Numbered from the stretch's first letter, positions 23,087 to 41,768 are shown. The stretch is DNA of 41,768 bases from Microcoleus sp. Aus8_D2 (GCF_036702665.1 NZ_JAUBUN010000017.1:1-41768); one strand, 5' to 3'. Numbers and translations are program-made. Notes: generated by a model from the letters alone, not told the origin.

Positions 23087-23096
23087 AAACTTACCA

Positions 23097-24179: not shown

Positions 24180-24287
24180 TCCTAAATAATAAGTAATTTC
24201 ATGTTCGGTTGAATCGCTATTGAATCATTGGTCATTTCTAATATCTAAGTTTCTTAATTTAATAAAAGACTGCATAATTTACACCGA

Positions 24288-24410
24288 TAGAGCTTCAGTA
24301 TAAAGAGCTTCATATACTTTCAGGATCTGTGGCAATCCATACTCCGTCATTCCTTCTCGTCCGCGCTTTGCCATGATGGAAGCATCTTCAGGACGATACA
24401 TATGTAAATG
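24288..24410 (-). pseudogene. Second remnant of a GT4 C-terminus (…RPEDASIMAKRGREGMTEYGLPQILKVYEALYTEALSV*)
   Basis: Minus-strand translation matches the C-terminal 40 aa of GT 25779-26921. Confidence 0.55.
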
Positions 24411-24431
24411 GATGTAAATCGAGATCGCCAC

Positions 24432-24527
24432 TATAGCCTTTCTCAGGTAGGTGAGGTACAGACAAATGCTCGAAAATCCTGAAATTCATAGAATCTGGTA
24501 CACCTCATGTTGGTGAGAACCGCTATA
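24432..24527. mobile_element. MITE-like element (~96 bp) with terminal inverted repeats TATAGCCTTTCTCA…TGAGAACCGCTATA. There is a second copy at 30319-30424.
   Basis: The two copies share termini and the internal CATAGAATCTGG(C/T)A(T/C)ACCTCA segment. Each copy is internally palindromic. Confidence 0.6.
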
Positions 24528-24791
24528 TATCTAAGTATTGCAGTAAAAAAAACAAATGGCGATACCCACAAACAATTACCATTATAGAGGCAAATGAGTA
24601 AATCATTGCACAAGCTAAGTTGATTTATGTCAAAAATAGTTATTTTTTGTATCAAATTATTTACGCAAGTCAAAAATATTAAGAATTATTAAATTTTGGT
24701 AATGAGTAACGAATTCTCGCTCCGACAATTTCACGGACGTGTTAAGATTAGGTGCAAACAATCAAGAGTATAAGTTTACAAAAAAACTACC

Positions 24792-25628: not shown

Positions 25629-25778
25629 AACATAAACTTGGAAAAAACTTCCTTGACCTAACTATGGGCTTCATCTCTGTACTCATAAGTCAGCAATTTC
25701 AAGATAGGATACGCCTAATTCCCGATAAAATTCTGCTGGTCGCTGGAAGACTAACCGCTCATCATAATTTTGCAGAAT

Positions 25779-26921
25779 TTATGATAAGTGCATCGCCTCG
25801 TTATACAAAGTTTCATGCAGTTTGATAATGTTCTGCAAATCATGTGTAGCCATGCGCGATCGCCCACGCTTGCCCATCGCCAAGGCATCTTCTGGGTGAT
25901 CTAATATCCAAGCCATTGCTTCAGCAAGTTTTTCCACATCTCCTACCTTAATCAAAAAGCCACAGTCTCCCTCCAGCAAATCCTGGATACCCCGAATGTC
26001 TGTTCCGATGACCGGAATTTCGAGGCAAAAAGACTCCATTACACATCTGGGAAGTCCTTCTTGTTCAGAAGCCAGCAGCGTAGCTGCTGAGGCACGGCTC
26101 AAAGTGGGAATATCCCGGCGTTCCCCTAGAAAATGCACCCGTTTTTCTACTTTTAGATCAGATGCTAATTGCCGCATTTCTGACATCAGCGGGCCGTCGC
26201 CGGCCAAGGCTAAATGGACTTGCGATCGCTCTAACTTAGCAAACGCTAGGATCACATCCCGATGATGCTTGCGGGGAATAAATTCGGCTACTGACAGGAA
26301 TAGAGGATTTTCTTGGGTGATTCCCATTTCCTGACGTACTTGTTTAACATCAGTTTCAGAAATAGCATCGGGACTGTAATAATCGATATCTACGCCAATT
26401 CCCGGCATATAGCGGACTCGTTCTGATGGCAGGATACCATAGCGCTTTGCAGCCTCTTCATCTTCGCGATTAATTACTACTAAGTAATCAGTCCAAGCTC
26501 CAGCCAATTTTTCTAAATTGAGAAAGACGGTATTTTTTAGAGGTTTCCCGCCGCGATAAAAGTGAAAGCCGTGAGCCGTGTAAATTACTTTGAATTTTGC
26601 CTGCTTTTTCAAATCTTTGAGGGCATACCGGGTAACGAAAGCTGCTACAGGGGTGTGTACGTGAATTATGTCGTATGCTTCCTGGGCGACGACCTCTCTA
26701 ATTATTTGAGGAGCAAGAATTAAATTGCGGGGATCTAGAGGATTGCGAGACCACTTTACATCCCAGACGCGATCGAATGCTTGCAAGCATTCAGCAGACT
26801 CAGAAATTCCTTGAGCCATTGCATCTACTTTCCAGCCTTTTTTGCGGAAGTGAAGAGCAAAAGGGAGAAGAAATGCCTGGAGAGTAGCTGGAATGGTAGT
26901 GACAATCAAAAGGCTATTCAT
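25779..26921 (-). CDS. GT4-family (GT-B, group 1) glycosyltransferase
   Basis: E-x7-E region EQEGLPRCVMESFCLEIPVIGTD. Typical ~380-aa length. Confidence 0.85.
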   Translation of the reverse strand: MNSLLIVTTIPATLQAFLLPFALHFRKKGWKVDAMAQGISESAECLQAFDRVWDVKWSRNPLDPRNLILAPQIIREVVAQEAYDIIHVHTPVAAFVTRYALKDLKKQAKFKVIYTAHGFHFYRGGKPLKNTVFLNLEKLAGAWTDYLVVINREDEEAAKRYGILPSERVRYMPGIGVDIDYYSPDAISETDVKQVRQEMGITQENPLFLSVAEFIPRKHHRDVILAFAKLERSQVHLALAGDGPLMSEMRQLASDLKVEKRVHFLGERRDIPTLSRASAATLLASEQEGLPRCVMESFCLEIPVIGTDIRGIQDLLEGDCGFLIKVGDVEKLAEAMAWILDHPEDALAMGKRGRSRMATHDLQNIIKLHETLYNEAMHLS

Positions 26922-26937
26922 AAGTTGGCTTTGTGAC

Positions 26938-28887
26938 TTAATAATTTTCCTCTAACCAAGCTTGGAACATCAACACATTCCATAAACAGTATTTCCAATC
27001 GCGATCGCCCGCCAGGTGTTCTGCCCACTTTTGGCGAATTGGCTGTGGATTAAAAAACCCTTCTCTGCGCAACCGTTTTTCATCTAGCAACGCTTCTGCC
27101 CAATCCCGCAAAGAACCGCGCAACCAGCTATCAATCGGAACACCAAATCCCATTTTTGGCCGCTCTACCAAGTTTCTAGGCACGTATTTGTATAATACCT
27201 GACGCAACAACCATTTGCTTTGACCATGACGGACTTTCATAGATAGTGGCATTCGCCAAGCTAATTCCACCAACCGATGGTCTAATAGCGGTACGCGAAC
27301 TTCCAAACTCACACCCATGCTAGCTCGGTCTACCTTGACAAGGATATCGTCCGGTAAAAAGGTGGCGGTATCGAGATACATCATCCATTCTATGAAATTT
27401 GGGAAATCAGCTCTGTCAAAGCGATCGTTCATAGCTGTCAGTGGCTCTGAGCCACCAATAATTAATTCTGCTGGGTCTTTCCAGTGAGAAACAAAATTTC
27501 TGTACATAGCTTTGTAATTGGCATCTGCCACAATTTCAGCGAGTTTGTGCAATCTATCACCTGAGACAGAGTTTCTAAGGTTCAGTGGCAGTAAAGCACT
27601 AAAGTTAGGCAGAATTCGATCCCAAGTTTGAGGAGATAAGCTAGTCAAGCTATGCGCGACCATCGATCTCAGTCCTGAGGGTATCCAGTCTATCTTCTGC
27701 CTAATGCTGTTAGCCAAAAAATAGCGTTCGTACCCAGCAAAGATTTCATCGCCACCATCGCCTGAAAGACTTACTGTTACCTGCTGTCTAGCTAACTGTG
27801 ATACCAGAAAGGTAGGTACTTGAGAGACATCGGAAAAGGGTTCATCATATAAACTTGGCAACTTCGGGATGACTCCCAGCACCTCTTCTGGAGTCAGATA
27901 AAGTTCTGTGTGGTCTGTACCCAGGTGCTGTGCTACAGCCTTGGCATACTTGGCTTCATTGTAGGCATCCTCATCAAAACCGATACTAAAAGTTTTCACT
28001 GGTTGACTACTTTGAGCCTGCATCAAAGCTACCACTGTGGAGGAGTCAATCCCTCCTGAAAGGAAAGCGCCTAAAGGTACATCTGCAACTACTCGAAGCC
28101 CCACTGCATTCCACAGGAGCGCATCTAACTCTGCCACTGCTTCCGATTCCGAACCTGTGAAAGGATTGGCAACACCGAATGTCGCCACTTCCTTGATAGA
28201 CCAATAAGGTACTGGCTCCTGATGAGTACCTGCACTTTTACAAGTGAGGATTGTTCCGGGAGGTAACTTGTAGATGCCTTGGTAGATTGAATAGGGCGCA
28301 GGAATGTAGCTATACCGAAGAAACAATGTCAAAGCATCTCGGTTGATTTCCGCCTGAAAATGAGGATAAGCTTTCAGAGCTTTTAGTTCAGAGCCAAACA
28401 AAAAAGTTTGATCCACCCAGCCGTAATAAAGGGGTTTTTCTCCTAAGCGATCGCGCCCCAAATGCAGAACCCCCTCTTGACAGTCCCACAAGGCAAAGGC
28501 AAACATTCCGTTGAAACGCCGAATTGCCCGATCTAGCCCCCACTCGCTAAAGCTAGCCAGCATTACCTCAGTATCAGAATGACCCCGGAAGCGGTGACCT
28601 AACCGCTCAAGTTCGCCTCTTAACTCTAAAAAGTTATAAATCTCGCCATTAAACGCGATCGCATAACGACCGTCCGCACATACCATCGGTTGGTGTCCTT
28701 CCGGCGAGATATCAATAATAGCGAGGCGTCGATGTCCCAAAGCAATACCTTTCTGGGCATCTACCCAAATGCCACGATCGTCTGGTCCCCGATGTTCGAG
28801 GCTATCCGACATCTTTTCAGCTACAGACCCCATTTCTTGAGCAGACATTTGCTGAACGGCATCAAACAAACCAGTTATTCCACACAT
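26938..28887 (-). CDS. Asparagine synthetase (glutamine-hydrolysing) family amidotransferase (AsnB/WbpS-like). Likely a sugar-uronate amidotransferase in this context.
   Basis: The N-terminal nucleophile MCGITGLFD is present (Cys2 of class II GATase). The PP-loop is LSGGIDSSTVVALM. 649 aa. Confidence 0.85.
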   Translation of the reverse strand: MCGITGLFDAVQQMSAQEMGSVAEKMSDSLEHRGPDDRGIWVDAQKGIALGHRRLAIIDISPEGHQPMVCADGRYAIAFNGEIYNFLELRGELERLGHRFRGHSDTEVMLASFSEWGLDRAIRRFNGMFAFALWDCQEGVLHLGRDRLGEKPLYYGWVDQTFLFGSELKALKAYPHFQAEINRDALTLFLRYSYIPAPYSIYQGIYKLPPGTILTCKSAGTHQEPVPYWSIKEVATFGVANPFTGSESEAVAELDALLWNAVGLRVVADVPLGAFLSGGIDSSTVVALMQAQSSQPVKTFSIGFDEDAYNEAKYAKAVAQHLGTDHTELYLTPEEVLGVIPKLPSLYDEPFSDVSQVPTFLVSQLARQQVTVSLSGDGGDEIFAGYERYFLANSIRQKIDWIPSGLRSMVAHSLTSLSPQTWDRILPNFSALLPLNLRNSVSGDRLHKLAEIVADANYKAMYRNFVSHWKDPAELIIGGSEPLTAMNDRFDRADFPNFIEWMMYLDTATFLPDDILVKVDRASMGVSLEVRVPLLDHRLVELAWRMPLSMKVRHGQSKWLLRQVLYKYVPRNLVERPKMGFGVPIDSWLRGSLRDWAEALLDEKRLRREGFFNPQPIRQKWAEHLAGDRDWKYCLWNVLMFQAWLEENY

Positions 28888-29059
28888 TTAATTCTCTAAA
28901 CCTATAAAAATTGAGCAAATTTATCCCAGAATAGCCAATTATAAAGCATTTTATCTGTACCGCCTGTTGAAAGTTCTCTGATGATATGTAGCATAAAAAA
29001 AATTACCTATCATATTATTCACCTTTGGATGACAACTAATTCAATGTGGTGGTAAATTT

Positions 29060-30229
29060 TTATTTTTTTTTAATTAACACACTTTCATACAATTCCTCAT
29101 ACTGAGCTACAATAGAATCTAAGGAAAAATTTTCGATAATTCTGGTTCTTGCCGCCTTTCCTAAAGCATTCCTGCCTTCTAAACCAACTTTGATTAACTC
29201 TTTCCAAGCATCAGCCAATGCCTTTGGATTCTTTGGAGATACTATTCTTCCAGTATTAGAGACAATCCAAGCTGAATCGCCAACATCCGTGACAACGCAA
29301 GGTACGCCACAGGACATGGCTTCACCAATAACATTAGGAAAAGCTTCTCCATAGAATGAAGAAGAAGAAGCGATATCTAAGGCCGCAGTAAGACGAGGAA
29401 TATCCTGTCTATCGCCAAGTAAGTGAATGCGATCGACAATTTTTAACTCATGGATTAGTTGAGATAATATTTGGTTCTCCCAATTAACTTCATCCCCAGC
29501 CAATAAAAAATGTACGTCGGGATAATCTTTGAGTAAGATTGCTGCCGCTTCAAGGAAGTTAGCAAAGTCTTTCATTAGATGATAGCGAGCAAACCGACCA
29601 ATTAAAAAAGTATCACTTTCTAGTCCGAGTTCTTTTATAAGACTAGTCCGAAACTCAAGTGAAGGCATAAAATTTTCTGGATCAAAGCCATTGGAAATTA
29701 CAAGGGTTTTAGAGGCTTGGTATCCAAGTTGTTCGTGTTGACTAGCACCTGTTTTTGAGTTATATAAGATTTTTTCAGGAAAACTACTAATTTTAGCTAG
29801 AATCTTAATTATAGCTGATGTAGCTGGTTTTTCGTAATCCAATGAGTAAATAGAATGACGAATGTTCCACACTACAGGTATAGATTTTAAGGTAAAAATA
29901 CCAGCTAACTGTGCCGCTAAATTAGCATGATACATCCAGCCTAGTATAAGGTCAGGTTTTAATTGGCGGATTTGATGAATAAATTGCCAAATAGATTTTG
30001 GTGTAGGTTTACCTTGCTTCATGCCCATTATATAGACAGGGATGCCTAAAGCTTCAATGCGATCGCCCCACGTCCCACGATCCATTAAAGAAACCACAAC
30101 AGGACTAAACCGCTCCCGATTTATTCTGGACAGCAAATTGTAGAGCATTCTCTCTGCACCACCTGTTGACAGTCCGGTAGTGATATATATAATTGACACT
30201 TTTTTCTCGGAAATATTTTTATTACCCAT
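29060..30229 (-). CDS. GT4-family glycosyltransferase
   Basis: GEAFPNVIGEAMSCGVPCVVTDVGD (E-x7-E) is present. The N-terminus has a GGAERM-type Gly-rich loop. Confidence 0.85.
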   Translation of the reverse strand: MGNKNISEKKVSIIYITTGLSTGGAERMLYNLLSRINRERFSPVVVSLMDRGTWGDRIEALGIPVYIMGMKQGKPTPKSIWQFIHQIRQLKPDLILGWMYHANLAAQLAGIFTLKSIPVVWNIRHSIYSLDYEKPATSAIIKILAKISSFPEKILYNSKTGASQHEQLGYQASKTLVISNGFDPENFMPSLEFRTSLIKELGLESDTFLIGRFARYHLMKDFANFLEAAAILLKDYPDVHFLLAGDEVNWENQILSQLIHELKIVDRIHLLGDRQDIPRLTAALDIASSSSFYGEAFPNVIGEAMSCGVPCVVTDVGDSAWIVSNTGRIVSPKNPKALADAWKELIKVGLEGRNALGKAARTRIIENFSLDSIVAQYEELYESVLIKKK

Positions 30230-30318
30230 AGTTTTAATTTTATTTCTGCACTATCTTAGCATACATCGATTTGTCTGATATTAATTTTAATACAAAAAGG
30301 ACTTATTTTGCTGGGCCA

Positions 30319-30424
30319 ATAAAGAACATATAGCGGTTCTCAGATAGATGAGGTATATATCAAAGGTCGAAAACCTTGATGTACATAGAATCTGGCATAC
30401 CTCACCTTTGTGAGAAAGGCTATA
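30319..30424. mobile_element. Second copy of the MITE-like element (TATAGCGGTTCTCA…TGAGAAAGGCTATA), in inverted orientation relative to 24432-24527
   Basis: See 24432-24527. Located in the 213-bp gap between the GT and the Wzy-like gene. Confidence 0.6.
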
Positions 30425-30442
30425 CATAGCTTTGGTTATATA

Positions 30443-31786
30443 TTAACTTTTCTGTCGCAGAATAGATATTTTAGTTCCTACCAATATCAATAACGTACTT
30501 GATACTAATAATATGAATTGAGATTGCAAAAATGTTTCTGGATCGGCTGTTTGCATGATTGCCCATATTTGAGCTACTGCTGTATAAAAAGACGGCATCC
30601 AAAATACATCTTGGATATGCTTTTCCATCACAGATTGTAAGTACCCACCTAACCACCCATAAGTTAAACAAACTATAATCAGTCCTGGCCACCACAGACT
30701 ATATATACCAAAAGCAAGAAAGCCTGTTGGTATCGAATAATCAAATGCTCCTGTAATATACCTGGTGTTATAAGCTAATATTGTTTCCGGTGATTCCGTA
30801 CCTAGTAAACGATCTGGGACTAAAGAAAGAAACCCATAGATCAAATCTACGAACCAGCGTATTTCATAGTCTGCACCAAAAGCTGTGTCCAGCGAAAAAA
30901 CGGTAAAAAAAAAGTTGTCCATAAACTTGTATAAACTAAATCCTTCACCATCTGTGCTACCCTCAGCAGATTTGTTAAATCTATCAATAACAGCATCAAT
31001 ACCGTCTGGAATAGCCGCTAAGCTAGAGAAAAGATTTTTACCATAAAATAAGAATAACACCATTAAAACAACCAAAATAACACTAAACAACCAGGGTATT
31101 TTTCTGGTTTTAAGTATATAAATTTGGTAAAATCCAAGAAAGTAGTAGAGAACGTCAAAGCGCCCAGCCCTCACCAAAAAAGAAGAAACTGTTACGACTA
31201 GTGAGAAAGCAAATGATAGAATTATCAACAATTTTCCTGTCTTGGTCTTGATATCCTTCGTAAATACAAAAGCACATAATAAATAAGATGAGAAGCTTGC
31301 TGCTCCTAGAAATCTGATGAAAAATCCTAGTGAACCGGCCTGTTCTGTACCAGATCTAACGGCTATTGACTGTGTGATTGCATTGACAACTCCACCAAAA
31401 GCTGAACTATATATCTGAACTGACATAGCAGAAAATAGAAGCAAAAAAATGGCATATCCCAAAATCATCAAATTGTTACGAGCGTTTACCACTATACGTT
31501 GTCCAAACTTTTTAGCTGACTTTGAATAAAAGCCAATTAGTACAAAAAAATATCCGACAAATATTGCTAAAGCAGTTTGTATTTTGTTTGTATAACCAAT
31601 AATATTTATCCACGAACCTGTGACTGTATTTTCAGGGTCAAAAGCTATTAGAAAAGCAGGTAAAACATACCACATTATAAAAGCACAATTAAACATGGTT
31701 AGAAAATCTATGGGATTTTCTTTCCTTCTAAATATTTCAATTAATGGTATAATAAATAGCAAAACCAAGTAAGCAGAATCTAGCAT
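30443..31786 (-). CDS. Polytopic membrane protein, probable oligosaccharide repeat-unit polymerase (Wzy-like)
   Basis: 447 aa with at least 10 predicted hydrophobic helices and no soluble-domain motif. Its position among GTs next to a flippase fits a Wzy. The assignment is from context only. Confidence 0.5.
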   Translation of the reverse strand: MLDSAYLVLLFIIPLIEIFRRKENPIDFLTMFNCAFIMWYVLPAFLIAFDPENTVTGSWINIIGYTNKIQTALAIFVGYFFVLIGFYSKSAKKFGQRIVVNARNNLMILGYAIFLLLFSAMSVQIYSSAFGGVVNAITQSIAVRSGTEQAGSLGFFIRFLGAASFSSYLLCAFVFTKDIKTKTGKLLIILSFAFSLVVTVSSFLVRAGRFDVLYYFLGFYQIYILKTRKIPWLFSVILVVLMVLFLFYGKNLFSSLAAIPDGIDAVIDRFNKSAEGSTDGEGFSLYKFMDNFFFTVFSLDTAFGADYEIRWFVDLIYGFLSLVPDRLLGTESPETILAYNTRYITGAFDYSIPTGFLAFGIYSLWWPGLIIVCLTYGWLGGYLQSVMEKHIQDVFWMPSFYTAVAQIWAIMQTADPETFLQSQFILLVSSTLLILVGTKISILRQKS

Positions 31787-31792
31787 TTCAAA

Positions 31793-32923
31793 CTACCTTT
31801 GTCTGATTACAGATATTAATATGTTTTCGGTTTTTTCATAAAGTACCTTAGTTTGGAAATTTTCCTTAATGCGTGTTCTAGCCATTATAGATAACTTTTC
31901 TCTATTCATCTGTAATATTTCTAACCACCCCGCAAATAAAGCTTGAGCATTGCTAGGCGCTACTACCACTCCTGCATCTCCGACAATCCACTTGGAATCT
32001 CCTACATCTGTTACTACACATGGTACACCACAAGCCATTGCCTCTCCAATCACATTAGCAAATCCTTCGCCATAGGCAGAAGCAGAAGTAGCGATATCTA
32101 AGGCGTTGTGTACCGCAGGCATATCTGGTCGCGCTCCTGCCCAAATAACTCGTTCATTAATACCTAATTTAGACGTTAATTCATACAATTCCTGTGCATA
32201 GTTTTCCAGTCCTGTACCAACACAAACAAAGTGGACATCCTGTCTTTGTTTGCAGATTAATGCTGCTGCTTTGAGAAAGTTTGGATGGTCTTTCATCGGG
32301 TTTAATCGCCCCACCAAGCCAATCAGAATAGTGTTTTCGGAAATTTTCCATTCTGCTCTTACTTTTGCCCTAGCTTCTGAATCAGGCTGAAAACGTTTAG
32401 TATCCAGACCGTTAGGAATTACCACCATTTTGTCAGATGGAAATCCATGTGTTAGGTAATAGGTTTTACCAGCGTGGGAATTAACAATGATCGAGTCGGC
32501 AAAGGGAGATAAAAGACTCTCTAGCTGAGATAGTACACGCCCCAGCCATCCGTAAAGATCGGGATCGGTGTTGCTGCCACGGATTCCCCAAATCATTTTG
32601 GTTGAGGGGAATAATGGCTTTAAGAATATTGTTAATACATTTGATTCGCCGAGGTATCCGTGCAAGACATCAGGTTGTATGTGTTTAAGATGTTGAAACA
32701 AACGCCAAAAGAAACCGAATATATCCCAACGTTCCCGTTTTTCCAAACATATTAGTGGGATTTCATTGTCTTTAAGCTCTTTTTCTAAAGGGCCACCGCG
32801 ATAAAAGCATAAGACTATTACATCGAAGCTTTGTTTGTTAAGCCCTTTTACTAAAGTGACTAATTGCCTTTGAGCGCCACCATAGTTTAAATCCCGGATC
32901 AGGAATACAACATTTTGTCTCAT
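31793..32923 (-). CDS. GT4-family glycosyltransferase
   Basis: GEGFANVIGEAMACGVPCVVTDVGD is present. The start is set at MRQNVVFLIRDLNYGGAQR. The stop of the upstream gene overlaps this ATG. Confidence 0.85.
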   Translation of the reverse strand: MRQNVVFLIRDLNYGGAQRQLVTLVKGLNKQSFDVIVLCFYRGGPLEKELKDNEIPLICLEKRERWDIFGFFWRLFQHLKHIQPDVLHGYLGESNVLTIFLKPLFPSTKMIWGIRGSNTDPDLYGWLGRVLSQLESLLSPFADSIIVNSHAGKTYYLTHGFPSDKMVVIPNGLDTKRFQPDSEARAKVRAEWKISENTILIGLVGRLNPMKDHPNFLKAAALICKQRQDVHFVCVGTGLENYAQELYELTSKLGINERVIWAGARPDMPAVHNALDIATSASAYGEGFANVIGEAMACGVPCVVTDVGDSKWIVGDAGVVVAPSNAQALFAGWLEILQMNREKLSIMARTRIKENFQTKVLYEKTENILISVIRQR

Positions 32924-34035
32924 CGCGGAACCTCCACAATTTGCTTTAATAATTCTTCCCACTTTTCTACTATTTTTTCTAAGCTGAACCGTTCTTTAAC
33001 CTCTGGCGCACGAGCAGCTAGAGTTGTTCGCTTTTCTTCATCAGACATTAAAGAATCCATTGCTGTAGCTAAGGCTAACATATCTTCGGTTGGTACTAAT
33101 ATACCATCTACCCCATCGCGGATAATTTCTCGTGGCCCGCTAGGACAATCTGTGGAAACTACGGGTAATCCACAGGCTAATGCTTCAAACAAAACTGCTG
33201 GTAATCCCTCCCAACGAGATGATAAAATGAATAGCTGTGAGGATTTGAAAACTGCGATCGGATTTTTAGTTTGTCCCGGCAATAGAACTTGCTCGCCTAA
33301 ACCAAAATGATCTCTTAAATGTTCAAGTTCTTTTCTCATTTCTCCTTCCCCAAATATCAGTAATTGCCAGTCTGGATAGCGATCGATAATTTTATGAAAT
33401 GCTGATAGCAGCAGTTCAAAATTCTTTTGATATACCAGACGACCCATTGCTATCGCCCATTTTTTATTTGGATCTGCTCCTTGAGGTAAATCGAACGTAC
33501 CTGTCTCACCGTTAATTGGTTGCAACGGGTTAAAGATAACTGCTCTTTGTGTTTTTGGCAACCAGTCATCAAAATAATTATCGACTCCTTCACTGACGCT
33601 CACCACTTTGTTAGCTCGTGGGTATATCCAACGACGCAATTGCTTCCACAAGTTTTGAGTGTCAGTATCTGGATTATTCTGCTCATTAACTATAACAGGA
33701 TAGTTTGTCTGGGTAAGAGCTAACAATGTCAAGATATTTATTTCAGCCATAAACGAGATGACTGCATCTGGCTGAAGCGCTCGAATTGTTTGTCTTAATA
33801 CCCGAAGGCGGTACAGATTATTCCACAAAGCATGGAATGGTGTTGGTGAAATTCCAGCTAGATCCAGAGCTAATCTATGAACTCCATCTGGTACTTTGTA
33901 GAAATCTCTCTCGGTTCCAGCAATTGTTACAAAGGAAACTTGATGACCTTTTTTAAGCAATCCTTCAGCGATCAAAATCGCTGCTCGCTCGGCACCGCCA
34001 CAGGAAAGGGATGAAGTTAGTAAAGTCAGTCGCAT
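32920..34035 (-). CDS. GT4-family glycosyltransferase
   Basis: N-terminus LLTSSLSCGGAERAAILIAEGL. E-x7-E is WEGLPAVLFEALACGLPVVSTD. Confidence 0.85.
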   Translation of the reverse strand: MRLTLLTSSLSCGGAERAAILIAEGLLKKGHQVSFVTIAGTERDFYKVPDGVHRLALDLAGISPTPFHALWNNLYRLRVLRQTIRALQPDAVISFMAEINILTLLALTQTNYPVIVNEQNNPDTDTQNLWKQLRRWIYPRANKVVSVSEGVDNYFDDWLPKTQRAVIFNPLQPINGETGTFDLPQGADPNKKWAIAMGRLVYQKNFELLLSAFHKIIDRYPDWQLLIFGEGEMRKELEHLRDHFGLGEQVLLPGQTKNPIAVFKSSQLFILSSRWEGLPAVLFEALACGLPVVSTDCPSGPREIIRDGVDGILVPTEDMLALATAMDSLMSDEEKRTTLAARAPEVKERFSLEKIVEKWEELLKQIVEVPR

Positions 34036-34083
34036 TATTTTTAGATGATAACTAGAGTTAATAAGATAGCTTCAACACACAGT

Positions 34084-34902
34084 TTAATGATTCAAAACTA
34101 TTTTCTGTGCCACAGAAATAATGTATGGTGCAAATATCTTAGTTTCTGGGAGAGGCGCTGTATAGTATTCTATAGCCCAAACCAATTTAGAAATCCGACT
34201 GAGACTATTCATCACAAAAGCCTTTATTTTAGTTGTTGAATGTTGTGGATTAAGATGGCTTAAATTTAGCACCCCAAAATGCGTACTCATAAAGTAACCG
34301 CATTTGTTAACCTTTAAACCAGCATCTTCATGTACAAGCTGAAGTAGATGCTGATCTAAGAGAACGTGTATGTCATACGTCTGCCTGTCCAAAATTTTCT
34401 GGAAAAATCCAATACTTCCTGTCTGGTTAGGAATCAGAGTAATCAAAATCCCATTAGGCTTGAGAAATCTGGAAAAGGCTGTAATACAGCCAACGGTATC
34501 TGGAAAGTGTTCAGCAACACCAAAGGAAATCACTACATCAAAGCTTTCCAATAGATTTTCTGCTGGATTGAAAAAGTCAGAACAAACAATTTTTCCTTTT
34601 ATTTCAGCTTTTTGCAGTATTTTTTCTGCCTGTTGACACCCTAATTCAGAATAGTCTAGACCAAAAACTTGAAAATCAAATTCTTTAGCAAAATATGGAA
34701 GCTTATCAGATCTAGCACAGCCGATTTCAAGTAATCGCATCTCCTTTGCATCCAACTTGGAAAAAATCTCAGAAAAATATCGATGTAGACGAAGTTCCCG
34801 ATAATTTCTGAAATGAGGATGGTGGGGGTTCATTGGTTCTGGTAGCTCACCTGTTTCCCACCAGCTATCCCATAATTCTTTGCTGGCTTTACTATTAGTC
34901 AT
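34084..34902 (-). CDS. Class I SAM-dependent methyltransferase
   Basis: Motif I LLEIGCARSDKLPYF, and a D/E after the beta-2 strand (FGLDYSE). Confidence 0.7.
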   Translation of the reverse strand: MTNSKASKELWDSWWETGELPEPMNPHHPHFRNYRELRLHRYFSEIFSKLDAKEMRLLEIGCARSDKLPYFAKEFDFQVFGLDYSELGCQQAEKILQKAEIKGKIVCSDFFNPAENLLESFDVVISFGVAEHFPDTVGCITAFSRFLKPNGILITLIPNQTGSIGFFQKILDRQTYDIHVLLDQHLLQLVHEDAGLKVNKCGYFMSTHFGVLNLSHLNPQHSTTKIKAFVMNSLSRISKLVWAIEYYTAPLPETKIFAPYIISVAQKIVLNH

Positions 34903-36259
34903 TTTGCCTCCTTAACAAATAGAAACACCAGTATGATGTAAAACTCAAGCATATCATATATAAACAACTTGTAGATAATGCAATTCCGCTAATTCCAAGC
35001 ACTTTCATGAAAATGTAGTTTAAGCCGATATTGACTATTAAGTTAATCGCCGATCCCCACATTAGAATATGATTAGCCTGTAAGGCTGAAATCAGCCTTA
35101 CAACCAAAATATTCGCCACATAAAAAGGAATCTGCAAGGCATAAAATGCTTGTATTTGAGCTACTATAATAGTATCTTTGCTACTAAATGTCCCTCTTTG
35201 GAACATGAACTCAACAATTTTGTCAGATCCCAGATAGAAAAATGCTACCAATGGTACAGTTATGAGAAAGATTAAAAAAAGATAGCGCCTCAATGTATGA
35301 CGTATAGCGTTCCAATCTTCACTCGCAACCATTTTGGAAAAATATGGTATTACAGCAGTGCTTAAGGCTGTGGTTGTTAGGGTGATCGGCAAGGCAATTA
35401 TTCGATTACCATAGTTCAATGCTGCCACACTTCCCGATGGTAATTGTGCTGCCATAGCTTGATCGACCAAGCCGGCACTACACATTAAAAGTCCTCCAGC
35501 AATCATCGGAGCATATTGGTTAGCTACCTGACGCAGATGAGTATCAAATCCATACCATTTTGGCATTAATGAAATGTGTTGCTTCTTTAATGCCACTCCT
35601 AAAATAACAATTTCTAATATTTGACCAAACACGAGTCCGGCTGCTAAGGCAAAGACTCCCCAGGAATTGGCTAACAATAATAATATGATAGTAATAGCTG
35701 GGGTAATAATGGGAGAAATAGCTGCTAAAGCGAAACGCTCTCCTGCATTCAAAACAGCACCCCATATAGTGAGCATCCCACTGAGTAGAACCATTGGCGC
35801 GATCGCGCATAGCAGCTTAAATGTCAGGTCTAACTTTTCATCACTGAACCCACCTGCAATCCACGGTAAATACAGTGGTGCAGTCATCACCATTGCTAGA
35901 GTCGTAATTCCTAGTAGTCCGAGACTCCAGACTGTGGCTCCAGAAAAAAGTTTTTGAGCTACTGTTATACCTTCTTGTTCTCGTACTTTAATATAGGTAG
36001 GTATCAGTGCAACATTAAAAGAGTTGGCTACAACATTAACTATAAAAGAAGGAATCACTAAAGCAATTAAGAATGCATCCAAGGCATCGGTAGTGCCAAA
36101 TTTCCAAGCAACCGCCAATTCTTTAGCTAAAGCTGCTAATTTGACTAATGCTGTTCCTATAGCAACTATTAAAGCTGCACCTAAAATTTGACGATTGGGA
36201 GACCCAGTTGTCAAGTTTTTCCAAAAATCTAGCCATTTTTTATAGCGCAAAATTTTCAT
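34895..36259 (-). CDS. MOP-superfamily polysaccharide flippase of the MurJ/MviN (MVF) type (Wzx-equivalent)
   Basis: The N-terminal region KFGTTDALDAFLIALVIPSFIVNVVANSFNVALIP resembles the MurJ signature (FG…TDAF…P…AF). 454 aa with about 12-14 TM helices. Confidence 0.7.
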   Translation of the reverse strand: MKILRYKKWLDFWKNLTTGSPNRQILGAALIVAIGTALVKLAALAKELAVAWKFGTTDALDAFLIALVIPSFIVNVVANSFNVALIPTYIKVREQEGITVAQKLFSGATVWSLGLLGITTLAMVMTAPLYLPWIAGGFSDEKLDLTFKLLCAIAPMVLLSGMLTIWGAVLNAGERFALAAISPIITPAITIILLLLANSWGVFALAAGLVFGQILEIVILGVALKKQHISLMPKWYGFDTHLRQVANQYAPMIAGGLLMCSAGLVDQAMAAQLPSGSVAALNYGNRIIALPITLTTTALSTAVIPYFSKMVASEDWNAIRHTLRRYLFLIFLITVPLVAFFYLGSDKIVEFMFQRGTFSSKDTIIVAQIQAFYALQIPFYVANILVVRLISALQANHILMWGSAINLIVNIGLNYIFMKVLGISGIALSTSCLYMICLSFTSYWCFYLLRRQND

Positions 36260-36353
36260 TAAATACAGATCCGTTTTTTGTTAATTTTGGACGCTCATTT
36301 TTTATTAGCGGCATCATCGTTACAACCACTTGAGCTTCTATTTGCACGATCGC

Positions 36354-37799
36354 CTAACGTGTCCTAAAAAAATCCTTGCCTGAATAGTCACCTCCTGATG
36401 CTTTAGGAGCTACAATCACACTTGTTTGTAAGTAATTATAGCCTGTGGATGGTTCCCACACATTAAGATTAGCAAATCTTATTGAATATTCAGGACGATT
36501 ATATAATTTGGTAGTGGGATCTGGTAAGTTCAATAATACTTCATAAACTCCTGGAGGTATATTTGCTGGGATACCACCTTTAATATTTACGATTTTAGTA
36601 GTTCCTGGCATCCACAGACGAGGCTCTTCTGGTACTGGCAAATAGTATTCTTTTCGGGTTTGACGGTTACGCAAAATCGCTTCTAGTCGTCGCGGGTTGT
36701 ATGGACTAGCCCATCCATCATTGACAAGTGTCAAATTTATTGAAAAGCTACCACCAGGTTTTATTGTGTGGGGAATCACCGAATTCAAAAGACGAAAGCG
36801 GTAGCCTAAACGACGCTTGATTTCGGGCATACAGCCTTGATCCTCCCAAACTTTCAATACTTCTTGGTCAAATCTAGAGTTTAAGTCACTCCAGCGCATT
36901 TGTCGTAAATCTTTTAAAGCATTAAGGCAACCAATATAAGGTTGTGCTTCTCTGTCAGCGTTACAAGTTTCCCCTCCTTGAACTAGATAGCTGTTATCCA
37001 GGTTTAAAAAATTCTTTTCTCTTTCTACAATTGTGGGATCTGTACTCATATATGTACCCCAATCATCTATACTAGCTAAGAAACACTCGTTATTAGCACC
37101 TGTTCTGGCGCGATAAGTACCGTTGAAGGCGTCTTCAGGAGTAAGGGGATTTTGATTGTCATAAATATCTCTTTTATTTTTGGAGTAACGTAGCGCTACC
37201 ATTCTGTCTGCTGGAAGTACCGATAAAATTTTAAATAAAATGGTTCTCATGTCCTGAGTATTTAGCAGATTGTTGGTCGAACGATTCCATTCCCCCCAGT
37301 AACCAATAAAACCTGCATGGATGTATGCGATCGCGTCGTAGTTCTCTGCCAAAATTGGTCTCAACTGCTCCAAGTGTGAGATAATTCTGTCGCGCGGAGC
37401 ATCAGAACCACCTTCTAGCCAATTGTAGGAAAATTTGATAATCAATTTTACCCCTGCTTGGCGGGCTGTCTCGCAGTCCTGCGAAATCATCTCTAGGAAA
37501 GATTGTGATAGCGGTTTTTCTCGAAATTCTGAAAGCAGGTAAATTCTGCGCACCAAACTCATGTTCTGAGTTCTCACTTTTTGCAAGTCAGATAACTGCA
37601 AGGGAGAAACTGGGTTATTACCGATAGGGTTAAACGGTACGAAGAAACCTCTTTCTGGATTGGGAAAATCCTCAGAACTGCTTTCATACGTTACTGTGGT
37701 TTGATTAGAAGGAACAGTAGCAACAGTCGGTTGGTATGAAGCGATCGCAAACAACAAGATTGACCCCAAAGGAAACTTTATATATTTTGCCAAATTCAT
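36354..37799 (-). CDS. Secreted TIM-barrel glycoside-hydrolase-like protein (DUF4874/DUF4832-like). Putative polysaccharide-processing hydrolase.
   Basis: N-terminal signal peptide MNLAKYIKFPLGSILLFAIASYQPTVA. GYWGEW and GGETC segments occur, as in GH-like TIM barrels. The family assignment is tentative. Confidence 0.45.
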   Translation of the reverse strand: MNLAKYIKFPLGSILLFAIASYQPTVATVPSNQTTVTYESSSEDFPNPERGFFVPFNPIGNNPVSPLQLSDLQKVRTQNMSLVRRIYLLSEFREKPLSQSFLEMISQDCETARQAGVKLIIKFSYNWLEGGSDAPRDRIISHLEQLRPILAENYDAIAYIHAGFIGYWGEWNRSTNNLLNTQDMRTILFKILSVLPADRMVALRYSKNKRDIYDNQNPLTPEDAFNGTYRARTGANNECFLASIDDWGTYMSTDPTIVEREKNFLNLDNSYLVQGGETCNADREAQPYIGCLNALKDLRQMRWSDLNSRFDQEVLKVWEDQGCMPEIKRRLGYRFRLLNSVIPHTIKPGGSFSINLTLVNDGWASPYNPRRLEAILRNRQTRKEYYLPVPEEPRLWMPGTTKIVNIKGGIPANIPPGVYEVLLNLPDPTTKLYNRPEYSIRFANLNVWEPSTGYNYLQTSVIVAPKASGGDYSGKDFFRTR

Positions 37800-37922
37800 A
37801 ATTTTCCTGCCTTCCACTGTTGATTCTGCGATCGCTAAGTCATAAGACTGGGATTAACCTACTGATAAACCTATTTTATGGGGGAAATTGAGTAAGTTTG
37901 AAAATTCTCAATAAATTCCCCA

Positions 37923-40730
37923 TTAACTATGAGCAGTCATAGTGCCAATCAATGTCTCTATCTTAGAGCCTTCCACGGGCTTCGAGAAAAAGTATCCCTG
38001 GCCGTAGACGCATTTCAGCGCTTTGAGCTGAGCTATTTGCTCGCAGGTTTCCACCCCAGTTGCAATCATACCCATATCTAGCTCCTGCGCGATCGCAATA
38101 ATTTTTTGGAGAGTTTCTAAGTTAGCGTCATTACCCTCCAGCCCGCTGACCACAGAACAATCTAGCTTCAAACTGTCGAACTTCCCATACTTCATGCGTA
38201 TCAAGCGGTGGAGGCGAGTTAAAGATCGATCGCTCAAACCGCAGTGATCGATTTGCAATTGCACCCCTAAAGCTTTGAGTTTAACAAACACAGCGGTAGC
38301 TAGCTCAGAATTGTCGATCGCAACTTGCTCCGGAATCTCTATCTTTAAACTAGAAGCATCAAGCTTAGTTTCCGTTAGAATTTGGTAGAGTACCTCGCTT
38401 AAATCAGGTTGGAAAAACTGTTTGCTAGTCAGATTCACGCTGACTGTTAAGGGATCGTCAATATCAAATCGCTGTTGCCAAATTCGCAACTGGCTGCAAG
38501 CTTGACGCAACACCCACTCGCCAATAGGCACAATCAACCCCGTGGCTTCTGCCGCTGGAATAAACTCGTCTGGGACAAGAAATCCACGAGTCGGGTGCTG
38601 CCAGCGCAGCAGCCCCTCAAAACCTGTAATCTTATGAGTTTCCAGGCATACTATCGGTTGATAGTAAAGGCGAAACTCCTGAAGTTTAAGAGCTTGCCTC
38701 AAATCATTCTCTACGTCAACAGATACAACACTGTTGGAATTTGTCTGAACCTGCGGAGAATTTTCTGCGATATCCGTTTTTTCTTGGGCTATATTGGCGT
38801 GCAAATTAACAGTTGAATATCCCGGTATGTATTCAGGCACTAACTGCTCTAGCAAAAACACAATTAAATTGGCATCATTTCGATGAGCTGCTTGACAAAG
38901 GGCTTCTATGTCCTGCTCAATATTTTCTCGGACAATGCGGCTGGCATTGCCGAGAATCAGAATTTTTTCATGTTCAGTTTTGTCGTAGGTTTCCCCGGGA
39001 ATAAACAGTTCTTCAAACAATTTTTCTCCAGGCCGCAGCCCCGTGAAGACAATATCAATGTCTTTGCCCAACTCATATCCCGAAAGGCGAATTAAATCTT
39101 TTGCCAAGTCAACAATTCTGACTGGCTGCCCCATGTCGAGCATGAATACTTGACCCCCGTCACCGAGCACTGCCGCCTGCAACAGCAGTTGCACTGCTTC
39201 GGGAATTGTCATGAAATACCGGCTGATATCTGGATGGGTAATGGTGATCGGGCCGCCTTCAGCAATTTGCCGTTTGAAGGTGGGGACGACGCTGCCGCGA
39301 CTGCCGAGAACATTGCCAAAACGTACAACTACAAAGGGTTTCCCGCTTTTTTTTGCAGCTTGCAGCACCAGCATTTCTGCAACTCTTTTGCTGGCGCCCA
39401 TAATGTTAGTTGGATTCACGGCCTTGTCAGTCGAAATCATCACAAAATGTTCGACATCGTACTTCAATGCCATATCCAACAGGTTTTTTGTTCCCCGCAC
39501 ATTATTAGTAATGGCTTCAGGCGGGTTTAATTCCATCATGGGTACGTGTTTGTGAGCCGCCGCGTGAAACACAATATCTGGTCTAACTTTGTCAAACACG
39601 TACTCTAAGCGATCGACAAAGCGAATATCGGCTATGAATGTTGTTAATTGAGGGATATGTATTTTGAGTTCGCCTGCTTTTTGGAGTTGGGAAATCACCC
39701 GGTTTAGTTCTTGTTGAATGTTGAATACAGAGTTTTCTCCGTGTCCTACAAGGATCATTTCCGCAGGTTCTGATTTTAAAACTTGTCGGCAAAGTTCGCT
39801 GCCGATCGAGCCACCAGCTCCGGTAATTAGAACTTTTTTGCCTATGATAAATTCGGAAACTTTCTCGACATCAGTTTGGATGGATTCGCGACGGAGCAAG
39901 TCCTCAATTTGTACTTCCCTGACGCTGCCCAAGCTGACGCGGCAGTTGATGATTTCATTGATACCGGGCAGTGTACTGGTTGGCACTCCAATTGACTGAC
40001 AAATTTCTACGATTTCTCTAATTTCTCTTCCCGGGGCTGTGGGTATGGCAATGATAACTTTAGAGATATTTAACGACCTAACTATTTGGGGAATTTGATG
40101 GCGATCGCCTACTACACTTACTCCGCGAATCCGCAAGTTGAGCTTTTTCGGGTCGTCGTCAATGAAAGCTGCGGGGTAAAGTCCTAGCTGGGAACTCCGC
40201 TGCATTTTCTGCATCAAAGAAATGCCTGCACTCCCTGCACCGACTATCAGCAAGCGATCGCACCGCTGAAATTTCCGGCGTCTTTGGCTCAACCTTTCGA
40301 TCGCGGGAATGCTGAAACGAATGCCGCCAATAAACAAAAAGCTCAGCATCGCATCGAGCAGTGGCAGCGATCGCGGCAGTTTGTTGACCCCAAAAATACT
40401 CAGGTGAGCCAGCCCTTGGAACAGTATAGTTTCTAAGGCTAAAGCCACACCGATCAGCACCGCTATTTGTGCCAATTCGTCAATACCGGCATACCGCCAG
40501 TAACGCCTGTAGAACCCGAAGCTATAAAATACAGTTAGCTTTACTGCAACGAACAATACCGTAGCTACCGCTAGCCCGTACAAGTAGGGTGCAAGAGTAA
40601 AAGAATCATCTAAACGAATAGCTAGCGCCAATACGGGGGCGATCGCCAAACAAATCGTGTCAATCAACAAAAAATGACGGTTCCTCAATCTCAGCAAACC
40701 TTGGCTGATTTTTCTGATTATCCGGTTCAT
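37923..40730 (-). CDS. Fusion protein: membrane-anchored CapD/WbpM/PglF-type nucleotide-sugar 4,6-dehydratase (residues ~1-640) followed by a C-terminal EAL (c-di-GMP phosphodiesterase-type) domain (residues ~690-935)
   Basis: The CapD part has an N-terminal 4-TM region, LIVGAGSAGISL, VLITGAGGSIGSEL, FHAAAHKHVPMME, ISTDKAVNPTNIMGASKRVAE and FGNVLGSRGSVVPTFKRQIAEGGPITITHP. The EAL part reads YYQPIVCLETHKITGFEGLLRWQHPTRGFLVPDEFIPAAEATGLIVPIGEWVL…SVNLTSKQF…KIEIPEQ…QIDHCGLSDRSL…KLDCS…ATGVETCEQ…GQGYFFSKP. It is a single uninterrupted ORF. Confidence 0.85.
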   Translation of the reverse strand: MNRIIRKISQGLLRLRNRHFLLIDTICLAIAPVLALAIRLDDSFTLAPYLYGLAVATVLFVAVKLTVFYSFGFYRRYWRYAGIDELAQIAVLIGVALALETILFQGLAHLSIFGVNKLPRSLPLLDAMLSFLFIGGIRFSIPAIERLSQRRRKFQRCDRLLIVGAGSAGISLMQKMQRSSQLGLYPAAFIDDDPKKLNLRIRGVSVVGDRHQIPQIVRSLNISKVIIAIPTAPGREIREIVEICQSIGVPTSTLPGINEIINCRVSLGSVREVQIEDLLRRESIQTDVEKVSEFIIGKKVLITGAGGSIGSELCRQVLKSEPAEMILVGHGENSVFNIQQELNRVISQLQKAGELKIHIPQLTTFIADIRFVDRLEYVFDKVRPDIVFHAAAHKHVPMMELNPPEAITNNVRGTKNLLDMALKYDVEHFVMISTDKAVNPTNIMGASKRVAEMLVLQAAKKSGKPFVVVRFGNVLGSRGSVVPTFKRQIAEGGPITITHPDISRYFMTIPEAVQLLLQAAVLGDGGQVFMLDMGQPVRIVDLAKDLIRLSGYELGKDIDIVFTGLRPGEKLFEELFIPGETYDKTEHEKILILGNASRIVRENIEQDIEALCQAAHRNDANLIVFLLEQLVPEYIPGYSTVNLHANIAQEKTDIAENSPQVQTNSNSVVSVDVENDLRQALKLQEFRLYYQPIVCLETHKITGFEGLLRWQHPTRGFLVPDEFIPAAEATGLIVPIGEWVLRQACSQLRIWQQRFDIDDPLTVSVNLTSKQFFQPDLSEVLYQILTETKLDASSLKIEIPEQVAIDNSELATAVFVKLKALGVQLQIDHCGLSDRSLTRLHRLIRMKYGKFDSLKLDCSVVSGLEGNDANLETLQKIIAIAQELDMGMIATGVETCEQIAQLKALKCVYGQGYFFSKPVEGSKIETLIGTMTAHS

Positions 40731-41286: not shown

Positions 41287-41768
41287 ATGGAGTCCGCAGA
41301 AACTGGTATAGGGTTTCAGCAATACTGGCAAATTATCAAGCGGCGCTGGCTGCCCGCCTTAGTCGTATTTGCCTCGGTTCTCGCATTAACTAGCTATAGT
41401 GTACTCAAGGAAAAGCCTGTCTATGAAGCCGAAGGCAAGCTTTTATTTAAAAAGACAAATCCTGCCTCTGCTTTAACAGAATTGGGAAAAGAAATAGGAC
41501 AGTTGACTCCAGCAGCAGAGCAAAGCAACCCCTTGACTACCGAAATCGAGCTAATTCGTTCTGTTGAACTTGCAGCAAAGACCATAAACAAGCTCAACCT
41601 CAAGGATCAAAAAGGCGACCCTCTAACAAGCAAAAGCTTTTTGAAAAACCTGACAGTGACAACTATTCGGGGAGCAGATATCCTGACGGTTTCTTACAAA
41701 AGTAAAAAATCCAAAGAAGCCGCAGATGTTGTCAAGAACATGATGGATTTTTATATAGAAAATAATGT
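41287..41768 (+). CDS. Polysaccharide co-polymerase / chain-length determinant (Wzz/Wzc/GumC-like), 5' part only; runs off the window
   Basis: The ATG at 41287 is preceded by AGGAGG. The N-terminus is YWQIIKRRWLPALVVFASVLALTSYSVLKEKPVYEAEGKLL, i.e. a cytoplasmic N-terminus, one TM helix and then a periplasmic Wzz domain (…DILTVSYKSKKSKEAADVVKNMMDFYIE). Confidence 0.75.
   Translation, partial: MESAETGIGFQQYWQIIKRRWLPALVVFASVLALTSYSVLKEKPVYEAEGKLLFKKTNPASALTELGKEIGQLTPAAEQSNPLTTEIELIRSVELAAKTINKLNLKDQKGDPLTSKSFLKNLTVTTIRGADILTVSYKSKKSKEAADVVKNMMDFYIENN

Follow-up and report, generated by a model that had tools for sequence, protein, structure and literature searches.

A gene on the minus strand (positions 37923..40730) of a 41,768-nt stretch of DNA from Microcoleus sp. 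Aus8_D2 (GCF_036702665.1 NZ_JAUBUN010000017.1:1-41768), hereafter called the window, codes for a 935-amino-acid (aa) protein in which a CapD/PglF-type dehydratase is fused to an EAL domain, a domain commonly labeled as a phosphodiesterase for cyclic di-guanosine monophosphate (c-di-GMP). Both ligands specific to the second metal site of EAL enzymes are missing from this domain, as they are from all 168 cyanobacterial fusion proteins sampled, and the residues that serve the first metal site and contact the nucleotide are nearly invariant. Judged against published mutagenesis of other EAL domains, phosphodiesterase activity has very likely been lost. The residues that remain suggest that the domain probably still binds c-di-GMP. 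Taking these points together, we lean toward a tethered c-di-GMP sensor that does not hydrolyze its ligand and that couples the level of this signaling molecule to the first committed step of exopolysaccharide (EPS) production. That c-di-GMP controls the dehydratase, or EPS initiation, is the more tentative part of this proposal, because the linker that joins the two domains is disordered and evolves neutrally.

The EAL active site

Pfam recognizes the EAL domain (PF00563; aa 675-918, positions 37977..38708; minus strand, as for all features below unless stated) with an E-value of 8.2e-61 and a score of 205.8 bits, well above the cutoff of 31.3 bits. For codon coordinates the minus strand was read base by base, and active-site residues were mapped by a HMMER search against all Protein Data Bank (PDB) chains. 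The best PDB match is TBD1265 (2r6o/3n3t; E 4.3e-47). An offset of 464 between the chain index of 2r6o and the TBD1265 numbering puts every published key residue of that enzyme (E523, R527, E546, N584, E616, D646, D647, E703 and Q723; PMC6629876) onto the expected motif. Spacings in RocR agree with this mapping (Q161-E175, +14; E265-D295, +30; K316-E352, +36; E352-Q372, +20), and the last two match the succession K855, T891, Q911 in the window protein. The roles given here to individual residues in EAL catalysis are drawn from secondary sources.

The class-1 EAL residues E523, R527, E546, N584, E616, D646, K667 and Q723 are all present in the window protein. The EGL signature (GAG-GGG-CTG, E705-G706-L707, positions 38610..38618) supplies E705, the counterpart of TBD1265 E523 and RocR E175 and a metal-1 ligand, and R709 (38604-38606) corresponds to R527. 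Further residues mapped to metal site 1 or the substrate are E728 (E546), N766 (N584) and E798 (E616). D828 (D646), K855 (K667) and Q911 (Q723) are likewise retained.

Three defining sequence features of class 1 are lacking, namely D647, E703 and loop 6, where HCGLSDRS stands for DFG(T/A)GYSS. Loop 6 reads DHCGLSDRS in place of DDFGTGYSS (GAT-CAC-TGC-GGT-TTG-AGC-GAT-CGA-TCT, D828-S836, positions 38223..38249), and in the alignment IDHCGLSDRS lies opposite LDDFGTGYSS of TBD1265. Within it, H829 (38244-38246) occupies the place of TBD1265 D647 and RocR D296, a metal-2 ligand. At the other diagnostic position, Thr891 (38058..38060) replaces TBD1265 E703 and RocR E352, which act as metal-2 ligand and general base. 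Metal site 2 has thus lost the two ligands that are specific to it. Between loop 6 and the KxD motif the protein also carries an insertion (I844-G849, 38184..38201); this insertion is family-wide, measures 6-7 aa, and is missing from canonical EAL domains.

Published work explains why these particular losses matter. The E703A change abolishes the phosphodiesterase activity of TBD1265, and E706A has no effect (PMC12943098). In RocR, D296 and E352 are metal ligands (PMC7911125; PMC2952852), and metal site 2 of PA3825 is built from the Asp residues of DDFGTG together with E217 (PMC5301497). Loop 6 is required for EAL activity (PMC12943098; PMC7005169), and a MorA structure described as a mutant phosphodiesterase (4rnf) has NNFG where DDFG is canonical. 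Under the published scheme that sorts EAL domains into classes 1, 2 and 3, of which class 3 is catalytically inactive (PMC7005169), we place the window domain, by its residues, in class 3.

An earlier reading of the window, made from its sequence alone, had suggested that the domain is a receptor rather than a phosphodiesterase because its second Asp and its loop 6 are degenerate. The coordinates it gave for EGL and DHCGLSDRS are exact on base-by-base reading, and both the degenerate loop and the change of the second Asp to His are borne out by the TBD1265 alignment. The case against phosphodiesterase activity is in fact stronger than the one it made, as the essential Glu is also lost (Thr891) and the losses of the second Asp and of this Glu are fixed throughout the family. 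The motifs it listed as retained (SVNLT, EIPE, KLD, GVET and GQGY) are all present. One of them needs correction, since the Glu of GVET (E894, 38049..38051) is not catalytic and matches TBD1265 E706 and RocR E355, which are dispensable for catalysis. The suggestion, made in that reading, that such a domain keeps its ability to bind c-di-GMP would fit the conservation of the contact residues Q691, E705, R709, D857, E894 and Q911 and the purifying selection described below.

Loss of metal site 2 throughout a cyanobacterial family

In a search of 5.8 billion proteins, each of the best 120 matches (57-100% identity) shared the CapD-EAL architecture; the sources of these matches are Microcoleus, Oscillatoria nigro-viridis PCC 7112, Tychonema, Phormidium, Moorena, Cyanosarcina, Merismopedia and Leptolyngbyaceae. 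A second search, seeded by a distant member from a Thermosynechococcaceae metagenome-assembled genome (L025), yielded 52 further members from Gloeocapsopsis, Stanieria PCC 7437, Pleurocapsales and Xenococcaceae. The family sample thus consists of 168 full-length cyanobacterial CapD-EAL cluster representatives (116 + 52). Among the matches listed, the fusion was encountered only in cyanobacteria, where it is distributed over several orders.

At the position of D647, the 116 full-length members from the first search carry His (57), Asn (41), Gln (13), Arg (4) or Lys (1), and none has Asp (0/116). At the position of E703 they carry Thr (78), Ala (29), Val (4), Met (2), Asp (2) or Ile (1), and none has Glu (0/116). 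The distant members have Asn at the first position without exception (52/52) and Thr, Met, Ala, Ser, Val or Gly at the second, again with no Glu (0/52). With Asp at the one position in 0/168 members and Glu at the other in 0/168, the degeneracy cannot be attributed to chance or to sequencing error. For comparison, Asp is found in ~98% and Glu in ~97% of 227 background EAL domains, in which loop-6 positions are 93-100% conserved.

The residues expected to hold the nucleotide and the first metal behave quite differently. Q691, E705, E894 and Q911 are invariant (168/168), R709 is present in 165/168, and N766, E798, E801, D828 and D857 are conserved in at least 96% of the family. Among the 116 members alone, Q691, E705, R709, E894 and Q911 show no variation, E728, N766, E798, E801, D828 and D857 are conserved in at least 97%, and K855 is found in 100/116. 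In the 52 distant members, too, the residues that serve metal site 1 or contact the ligand hardly vary.

A column-by-column comparison of the 116 family members with the 227 background domains shows how selective the loss has been. Approximately 88 positions are conserved in at least 80% of the background, and only nine of these persist in under 15% of family members: T800, D829, F830, T832, I856, F860, L880, V888 and E891. Three of them, D829, T832 and E891, are kept by no family member at all, and two of these three are the metal-2 ligands.

The inactivation also appears to be specific to the fusion, because the closest EAL domains outside the family are canonical. The 150 closest representatives from a library clustered at 50% identity are 45-55% identical to the window domain, and nearly all belong to the GGDEF-EAL type, their DDFGTGYSS and AEG(V/I)E motifs being canonical. 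Fusion members are almost absent from that library, with one 461-aa fragment (P0121) found. Similarly, in a species-dereplicated genome scan, 78 of the 80 loci listed are canonical GGDEF-EAL proteins and 2 are fusions, numbers that serve as a background control and not as a taxonomic census.

Loop 6 itself has diversified, with 43 variants among the 116 members, of which DHCGLSD is the version in Microcoleus and Oscillatoria. Several members have a near-canonical loop save for the change of Asp to Asn (DNFGIGYSS, DNFGLGYSS, DNFGTGWSS). From these near-canonical loops it follows that the ancestral event was probably the change of Asp to Asn together with loss of the E703 residue, and that loop 6 drifted afterwards.

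One clade with the loop DNLGIGYSF (P0061, P0076, P0078, P0079 and others) has Asn or Ser at the K667 position in 14/14 members and retains the Q, E523, R527, E706 and Q723 residues. That this clade has lost the catalytic Lys as well adds to the evidence that selection does not act on catalysis.

Selection and predicted structure

Ratios of nonsynonymous to synonymous substitution rates (dN/dS) were calculated by the Nei-Gojobori method against two close relatives, L084 (93% aa identity) and L085 (80% aa identity). Against L084 the values are 0.26 for the EAL domain, 0.10 for the short-chain dehydrogenase/reductase (SDR) domain and 1.19 for the linker; against L085 they are 0.20, 0.06 and 0.96. 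The EAL domain is kept by purifying selection, and the 32-aa linker evolves neutrally. Linker identity is 9-23% among homologs that are ~60% identical overall. The sequence of this segment is effectively unconstrained, yet a linker of comparable size is maintained in the family.

An AlphaFold2 model of the EAL domain alone has high confidence (predicted local distance difference test [pLDDT] 89.7; predicted template modeling score [pTM] 0.88), and its least confident internal stretch comprises loop 6 and the insertion. The best Foldseek match to this model is TBD1265 in complex with c-di-GMP (3n3t; E 9e-27; template modeling [TM] score 0.85/0.90), followed by MorA, BifA and PdeA; FimX (3hv8) is 46th, with a TM score of 0.77. 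The full-length model has a pTM of 0.58, and pLDDT falls below 50 in the linker (aa 638-669, ~32 aa, positions 38724..38819), which is predicted to be disordered (pLDDT 31-35).

A dehydratase with an intact catalytic signature

The remainder of the protein has the features of a sugar-nucleotide dehydratase that supplies the first sugar precursor for polysaccharide assembly. An N-terminal membrane anchor (aa 17-154, positions 40269..40682) appears in the full-length AlphaFold2 model as four long helices, three of which exceed a strict hydropathy threshold (segments scoring at least 1.6). It overlaps a CoA_binding_3 domain (Pfam; aa 71-250), which is followed by a Polysacc_synt_2 or extended-SDR dehydratase domain (aa 300-592, positions 38955..39833; Pfam E 5.5e-117). 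The order of elements is therefore transmembrane segment, CoA_binding_3, Polysacc_synt_2 and EAL, and no GGDEF partner domain was found in the protein by Pfam.

The closest solved relative of the SDR domain is C. jejuni PglF (WlaL, 5bju; E 7.7e-85). The catalytic signature TDK...Mx3K, which characterizes PglF and WbpM (PMC8987622), is present as T434-D435-K436 ... M444-G-A-S-K448 (positions 39387..39431), so this half of the protein looks catalytically intact. The GxGGxIG motif of extended SDR proteins, which binds nicotinamide adenine dinucleotide, is present as TGAGGSIGSE. On all of the sequence features that can be checked, the protein is a membrane-anchored UDP-N-acetylglucosamine (UDP-GlcNAc) 4,6-dehydratase of the PglF/WbpM type. 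It resembles PglF of C. jejuni, WbpM of P. aeruginosa and EpsC of B. subtilis in combining an N-terminal transmembrane anchor with an extended SDR domain that bears TDK...Mx3K. The EAL domain sets it apart from these proteins; in a review of the dehydratases (PMC8987622) and in a study of EpsC (PMC10653937), no EAL domain or other domain for a second messenger is described at the C-terminus of such enzymes.

The fusion architecture is already visible in databases. The 935-aa product is 100% identical to an entry named 'polysaccharide biosynthesis protein [unclassified Microcoleus]', and homologs carry the Joint Genome Institute (JGI) label 'FlaA1/EpsC-like NDP-sugar epimerase/EAL domain-containing protein (putative c-di-GMP-specific phosphodiesterase class I)'. 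Full-text searches found no literature that discusses the CapD-EAL fusion.

Proposed function and its alternatives

We favor a sensor because it would account at once for the removal of metal site 2, the relaxation of loop 6, the preserved nucleotide pocket and first metal site, the purifying selection and the obligatory fusion. The EAL domain would be a former phosphodiesterase from which metal site 2 was removed, through replacement of the D647 residue by His, Asn or Gln and of the E703 residue by Thr, Ala or Met, and whose loop 6 drifted afterwards. With its c-di-GMP pocket and first metal site preserved, the domain would bind c-di-GMP, together with Mg2+, without hydrolysis or with negligible turnover. 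The step under control would be the first committed one of a Wzx/Wzy-type EPS pathway, in which UDP-GlcNAc is converted to a 4-keto-6-deoxy sugar, UDP-2-acetamido-2,6-dideoxy-4-hexulose. This product would feed an aminotransferase like PglE and an initiating transferase like PglC, and the presence of both genes in the cluster fits such an activity. A rigid helical relay between the domains is unlikely, given the flexible linker; we favor a mode of action in which the EAL module docks or dimerizes in a ligand-dependent way, its target being either the dehydratase or neighboring machinery such as Wzc.

Several observations weigh against this proposal. The sequence-only reading favored a model in which c-di-GMP regulates the dehydratase allosterically. 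A linker whose pLDDT stays under 50 and whose dN/dS is close to 1 argues against rigid allosteric coupling, though it leaves other outputs available. Given the low pTM of the full-length model and the disordered linker, that model does not allow a fixed arrangement of the EAL domain and the dehydratase to be claimed. RocR D296 has been counted among the residues that recognize c-di-GMP as well (PMC2952852), and loss of its counterpart could weaken binding. FimX retains very weak phosphodiesterase activity without its catalytic residues (PMC3527489), so a 'dead' domain may in truth be a very slow one. Finally, all metal-1 ligands and, in most members, the K667 residue are retained, which goes beyond the binding needs of LapD and FimX and is left unexplained by a pure receptor model.

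Among the alternatives, the one that survives best is a module that has abandoned the nucleotide altogether, as have YdiV, CsrD and BluF, and that serves in dimerization or in protein contacts with EPS machinery such as Wzc or the initiating transferase. Loop 6 and the helix that follows it form the dimer or switch region of EAL domains (PMC5301497; PMC7005169), and this is the region that the family has remodeled, with its many loop variants and its insertion. A flexible tether would suit recruitment, and the contribution of D296 to c-di-GMP recognition in RocR fits this alternative as well. Set against it are the near-invariant residues Q691, E705, R709, N766, E798, D828, D857, E894 and Q911 (n = 168); a pure scaffold is disfavored because residues relevant only to nucleotide or metal binding would have no reason to persist in this way. 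Known EAL domains that do not bind the nucleotide are, moreover, too divergent to give PDB matches at E ≤ 1e-3, whereas the window domain matches active EAL domains at 1e-40 or better. We regard this alternative as unlikely.

It is also rather unlikely that c-di-GMP is bound and the output lies elsewhere, for example in the Wzc-like co-polymerase or kinase, the flippase or the polymerase, or in buffering of c-di-GMP at the membrane, such that fusion to the dehydratase only localizes the receptor. In favor of this reading, the head of the locus has, besides the fusion gene, one conserved element, which is the Wzc-like gene; the downstream cassettes vary, and the flexible, neutral linker is accompanied by no confident packing between domains. 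The fusion to the dehydratase is nonetheless kept in 168/168 relatives across several cyanobacterial orders, and because covalent attachment is conserved in all of them, a functional link between the two domains is the simplest reading.

We consider it quite improbable that the domain is a working phosphodiesterase that depletes c-di-GMP locally at the EPS machinery, by a one-metal mechanism or with substitute ligands such as His829 and Cys830. The retention of all metal-1 ligands, K855 and the EAL Glu, the ability of His to ligate metals, the conservation of DHCG in the Microcoleus/Oscillatoria clade, the weak turnover by FimX and the JGI label all speak for activity. They are countered by the finding that E703A alone kills TBD1265 (PMC12943098) at a position where the family has Thr, Ala, Met or Val, by a loop 6 that is needed for activity and yet hypervariable, by the clade that has exchanged K667 for Asn or Ser, and by placement of the domain in the inactive class 3. 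Nor is there a conserved replacement ligand at the D647 position, because its residue differs among clades (His, Asn, Gln, Arg or Lys, and Asn in all 52 distant members). A metal site rebuilt from His829 and Cys830 is accordingly rejected for the family as a whole, other clades having Asn, Gln, Arg or Lys in place of the His. A decaying remnant or pseudogene is rejected by the EAL dN/dS of 0.2-0.26 and the invariant ligand-site residues.

Relation to known c-di-GMP systems

LapD and FimX are degenerate EAL proteins that act as c-di-GMP receptors (PMC3032553), and the tethered sensor proposed here would share with them an EAL fold without catalytic residues that passes a signal to an attached output. 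Binding of c-di-GMP is established for those proteins and proposed for this one. They differ from it in being GGDEF-EAL proteins (HAMP-GGDEF-EAL in LapD, REC-PAS-GGDEF-EAL in FimX) with heavily degenerate sites, including KVL in place of EAL in LapD (PMC3032553), whereas the window domain keeps E705 and all metal-1 ligands and has no GGDEF domain. Where those proteins have a helical relay, the window domain is attached to a biosynthetic enzyme by a disordered linker. The sequence-only reading had called the domain LapD/FimX-like. This comparison is apt for function, but in sequence and fold the domain is much closer to active EAL enzymes and keeps the EAL Glu (PDB matches: TBD1265, 4e-47; FimX, 6e-14; LapD, 3e-7; active EAL domains, 1e-40 or better).

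Its best matches in sequence and fold are TBD1265, MorA, BifA and PdeA (36-39% identity; TM scores 0.82-0.90), with which it shares the E523, R527, E546, N584, E616, D646, K667 and Q723 residues. Relative to these enzymes it lacks D647, E703 and the loop-6 sequence DFGTGYSS, and it has gained the 6-aa insert after loop 6.

YkuI itself carries the full catalytic residue set. The class 2 EAL domains that it typifies may be analogous to the window domain in having a degenerate loop 6 and a probable single-metal complex with c-di-GMP, but they possess the catalytic residues, and the window domain belongs to class 3 and not to this type because two such residues are also lost. A single-metal complex with c-di-GMP has been described for YkuI (PMC3527489).

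Direct posttranslational control of EPS production by c-di-GMP, as exerted through the PilZ domains of BcsA and XcsA and through PelD and BgsA, offers a possible functional analogy. In those systems the receptor sits on the synthase or glycosyltransferase, and here the putative receptor sits on an enzyme that makes a nucleotide-sugar precursor. We know of no characterized precedent for a c-di-GMP receptor on such an enzyme, and our literature searches found none. XcsA is a cyanobacterial example of a polysaccharide system gated by c-di-GMP (PMC10124867), and BgsA belongs to another c-di-GMP-gated polysaccharide machine (PMC5567048).

Few c-di-GMP receptors are known in cyanobacteria, though their aggregation, motility and biofilm formation are under the control of this molecule; a 2023 review names only XcsA, a PilZ cellulose synthase, and CdgR (PMC10124867). 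If the tethered-sensor proposal is correct, the fusion proteins would add to this short list and would provide the first case in which c-di-GMP acts at the step of precursor supply and not on a synthase or a transcription factor. The proposal also makes a testable link between c-di-GMP and the sheath, slime and mat polysaccharides of Microcoleus, Oscillatoria, Moorena and Pleurocapsales. More tentatively still, CapD-EAL proteins may form a widespread class of cyanobacterial c-di-GMP effectors that directly gate the precursor enzyme at the head of serotype-variable Wzx/Wzy loci.

That a degenerate EAL domain may be a receptor will not surprise specialists. What deserves notice is the output through a precursor enzyme, the clean loss of metal site 2 across an entire family, and the connection to EPS in cyanobacteria that form mats. 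As a natural case in which metal site 2 has been selectively removed throughout a family, the fusion proteins should help to tell binding and catalysis apart in EAL domains. In addition, the residue losses correct the automatic label of 'putative c-di-GMP phosphodiesterase', which, if kept, would inflate counts of enzymes that degrade c-di-GMP.

The polysaccharide locus

The window has a GC content of 42.4% and carries 30 copies of the cyanobacterial octamer palindrome HIP1 (GCGATCGC), for which ~0.6 would be expected by chance. A scan of the whole 41.8 kb gave no Rfam family at its gathering score, c-di-GMP riboswitches included, and in a scan for promoters and terminators around the fusion gene the number of sites was not above that in shuffled sequence.

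Upstream of the fusion gene lies a divergent gene for a Wzc/Wzz-like chain-length determinant (41287..41768, plus strand), of which only the N-terminus is contained before it runs off the window. A divergent Wzc-like neighbor is also found in Oscillatoria PCC 7112 (L001), Merismopedia (L003) and the two close Microcoleus relatives (L084, L085). In Moorena the fusion gene heads an EPS cassette, and no Wzc-like gene was found within the flank examined.

Downstream, a co-directional polysaccharide cluster occupies positions 17140..37817. It contains a DUF4874/DUF4832 gene, a MurJ-like flippase, methyltransferases, five glycosyltransferases of family GT4, a Wzy-like open reading frame, an AsnB-like amidotransferase, an epimerase, a FemAB/GNAT-like protein, a PglC-like Bac_transf protein and a PglE-like DegT aminotransferase. 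The 487-aa DUF4874 + DUF4832 protein is encoded directly downstream of the fusion gene (36354-37817) and has counterparts in Oscillatoria nigro-viridis PCC 7112 and Moorena (L002), in both of which the order CapD-EAL, DUF4874/4832, MurJ, GT4 genes is repeated. Among the GT4 genes, a 447-aa protein (30443-31786) that matches no Pfam family and contains at least 9 hydrophobic segments is a candidate Wzy-type polymerase, and a similar gene without a Pfam match is found at the equivalent position in both of these relatives.

The far end of the cluster (17140-20779) holds the PglE-like DegT aminotransferase, the 212-aa PglC-like Bac_transf protein, a methyltransferase and the FemAB/GNAT-like protein. 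These PglE-like and PglC-like partners recall the C. jejuni pgl and the eps pathways; a set made up of PglF, PglE, an acyltransferase and PglC matches the bacillosamine-type pathway for initiation known from C. jejuni pgl and B. subtilis epsCNM/epsL (PMC10653937). By analogy, these genes and the PglF-like dehydratase suggest a bacillosamine-type 4-amino-4,6-dideoxy-N-acetylhexosamine as the initiating sugar for this cluster.

Gene content behind the fusion differs among close relatives. In L084 and L085 the next gene encodes either a Polysacc_synt-type flippase or a protein that Pfam does not match, and it is followed by a GT4 gene and by Wzy_C or O-ag_pol_Wzy, unlike the window, where DUF4874/4832 is followed by MurJ. 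Because of these differences, the locus looks like a serotype-style variable cassette behind a conserved head composed of the Wzc-like gene and CapD-EAL.

Three further features of the region were observed. Amid the glycosyltransferases lies a gene for a 649-aa glutamine amidotransferase of the asparagine-synthase type (26938-28887), and a UDP-glucose/GDP-mannose dehydrogenase is encoded at 12419-13924; given this dehydrogenase, a uronic acid may be what the amidotransferase amidates. The polysaccharide cluster also includes, on the other strand, a gene for a member of the Coq4 family (Pfam E 1.5e-32; 16264-17052, plus strand). Cyanobacteria are not known to make ubiquinone, so a protein of this family is unexpected. 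Lastly, a gene at 5576-11130 codes for a 1319-aa NACHT-HEAT STAND nucleoside triphosphatase with C-terminal NCAB1 and NCC-H modules and adjoins a gene for a 483-aa protein of the phage-integrase family, and the two may constitute a mobile or defense island that flanks the polysaccharide cluster.

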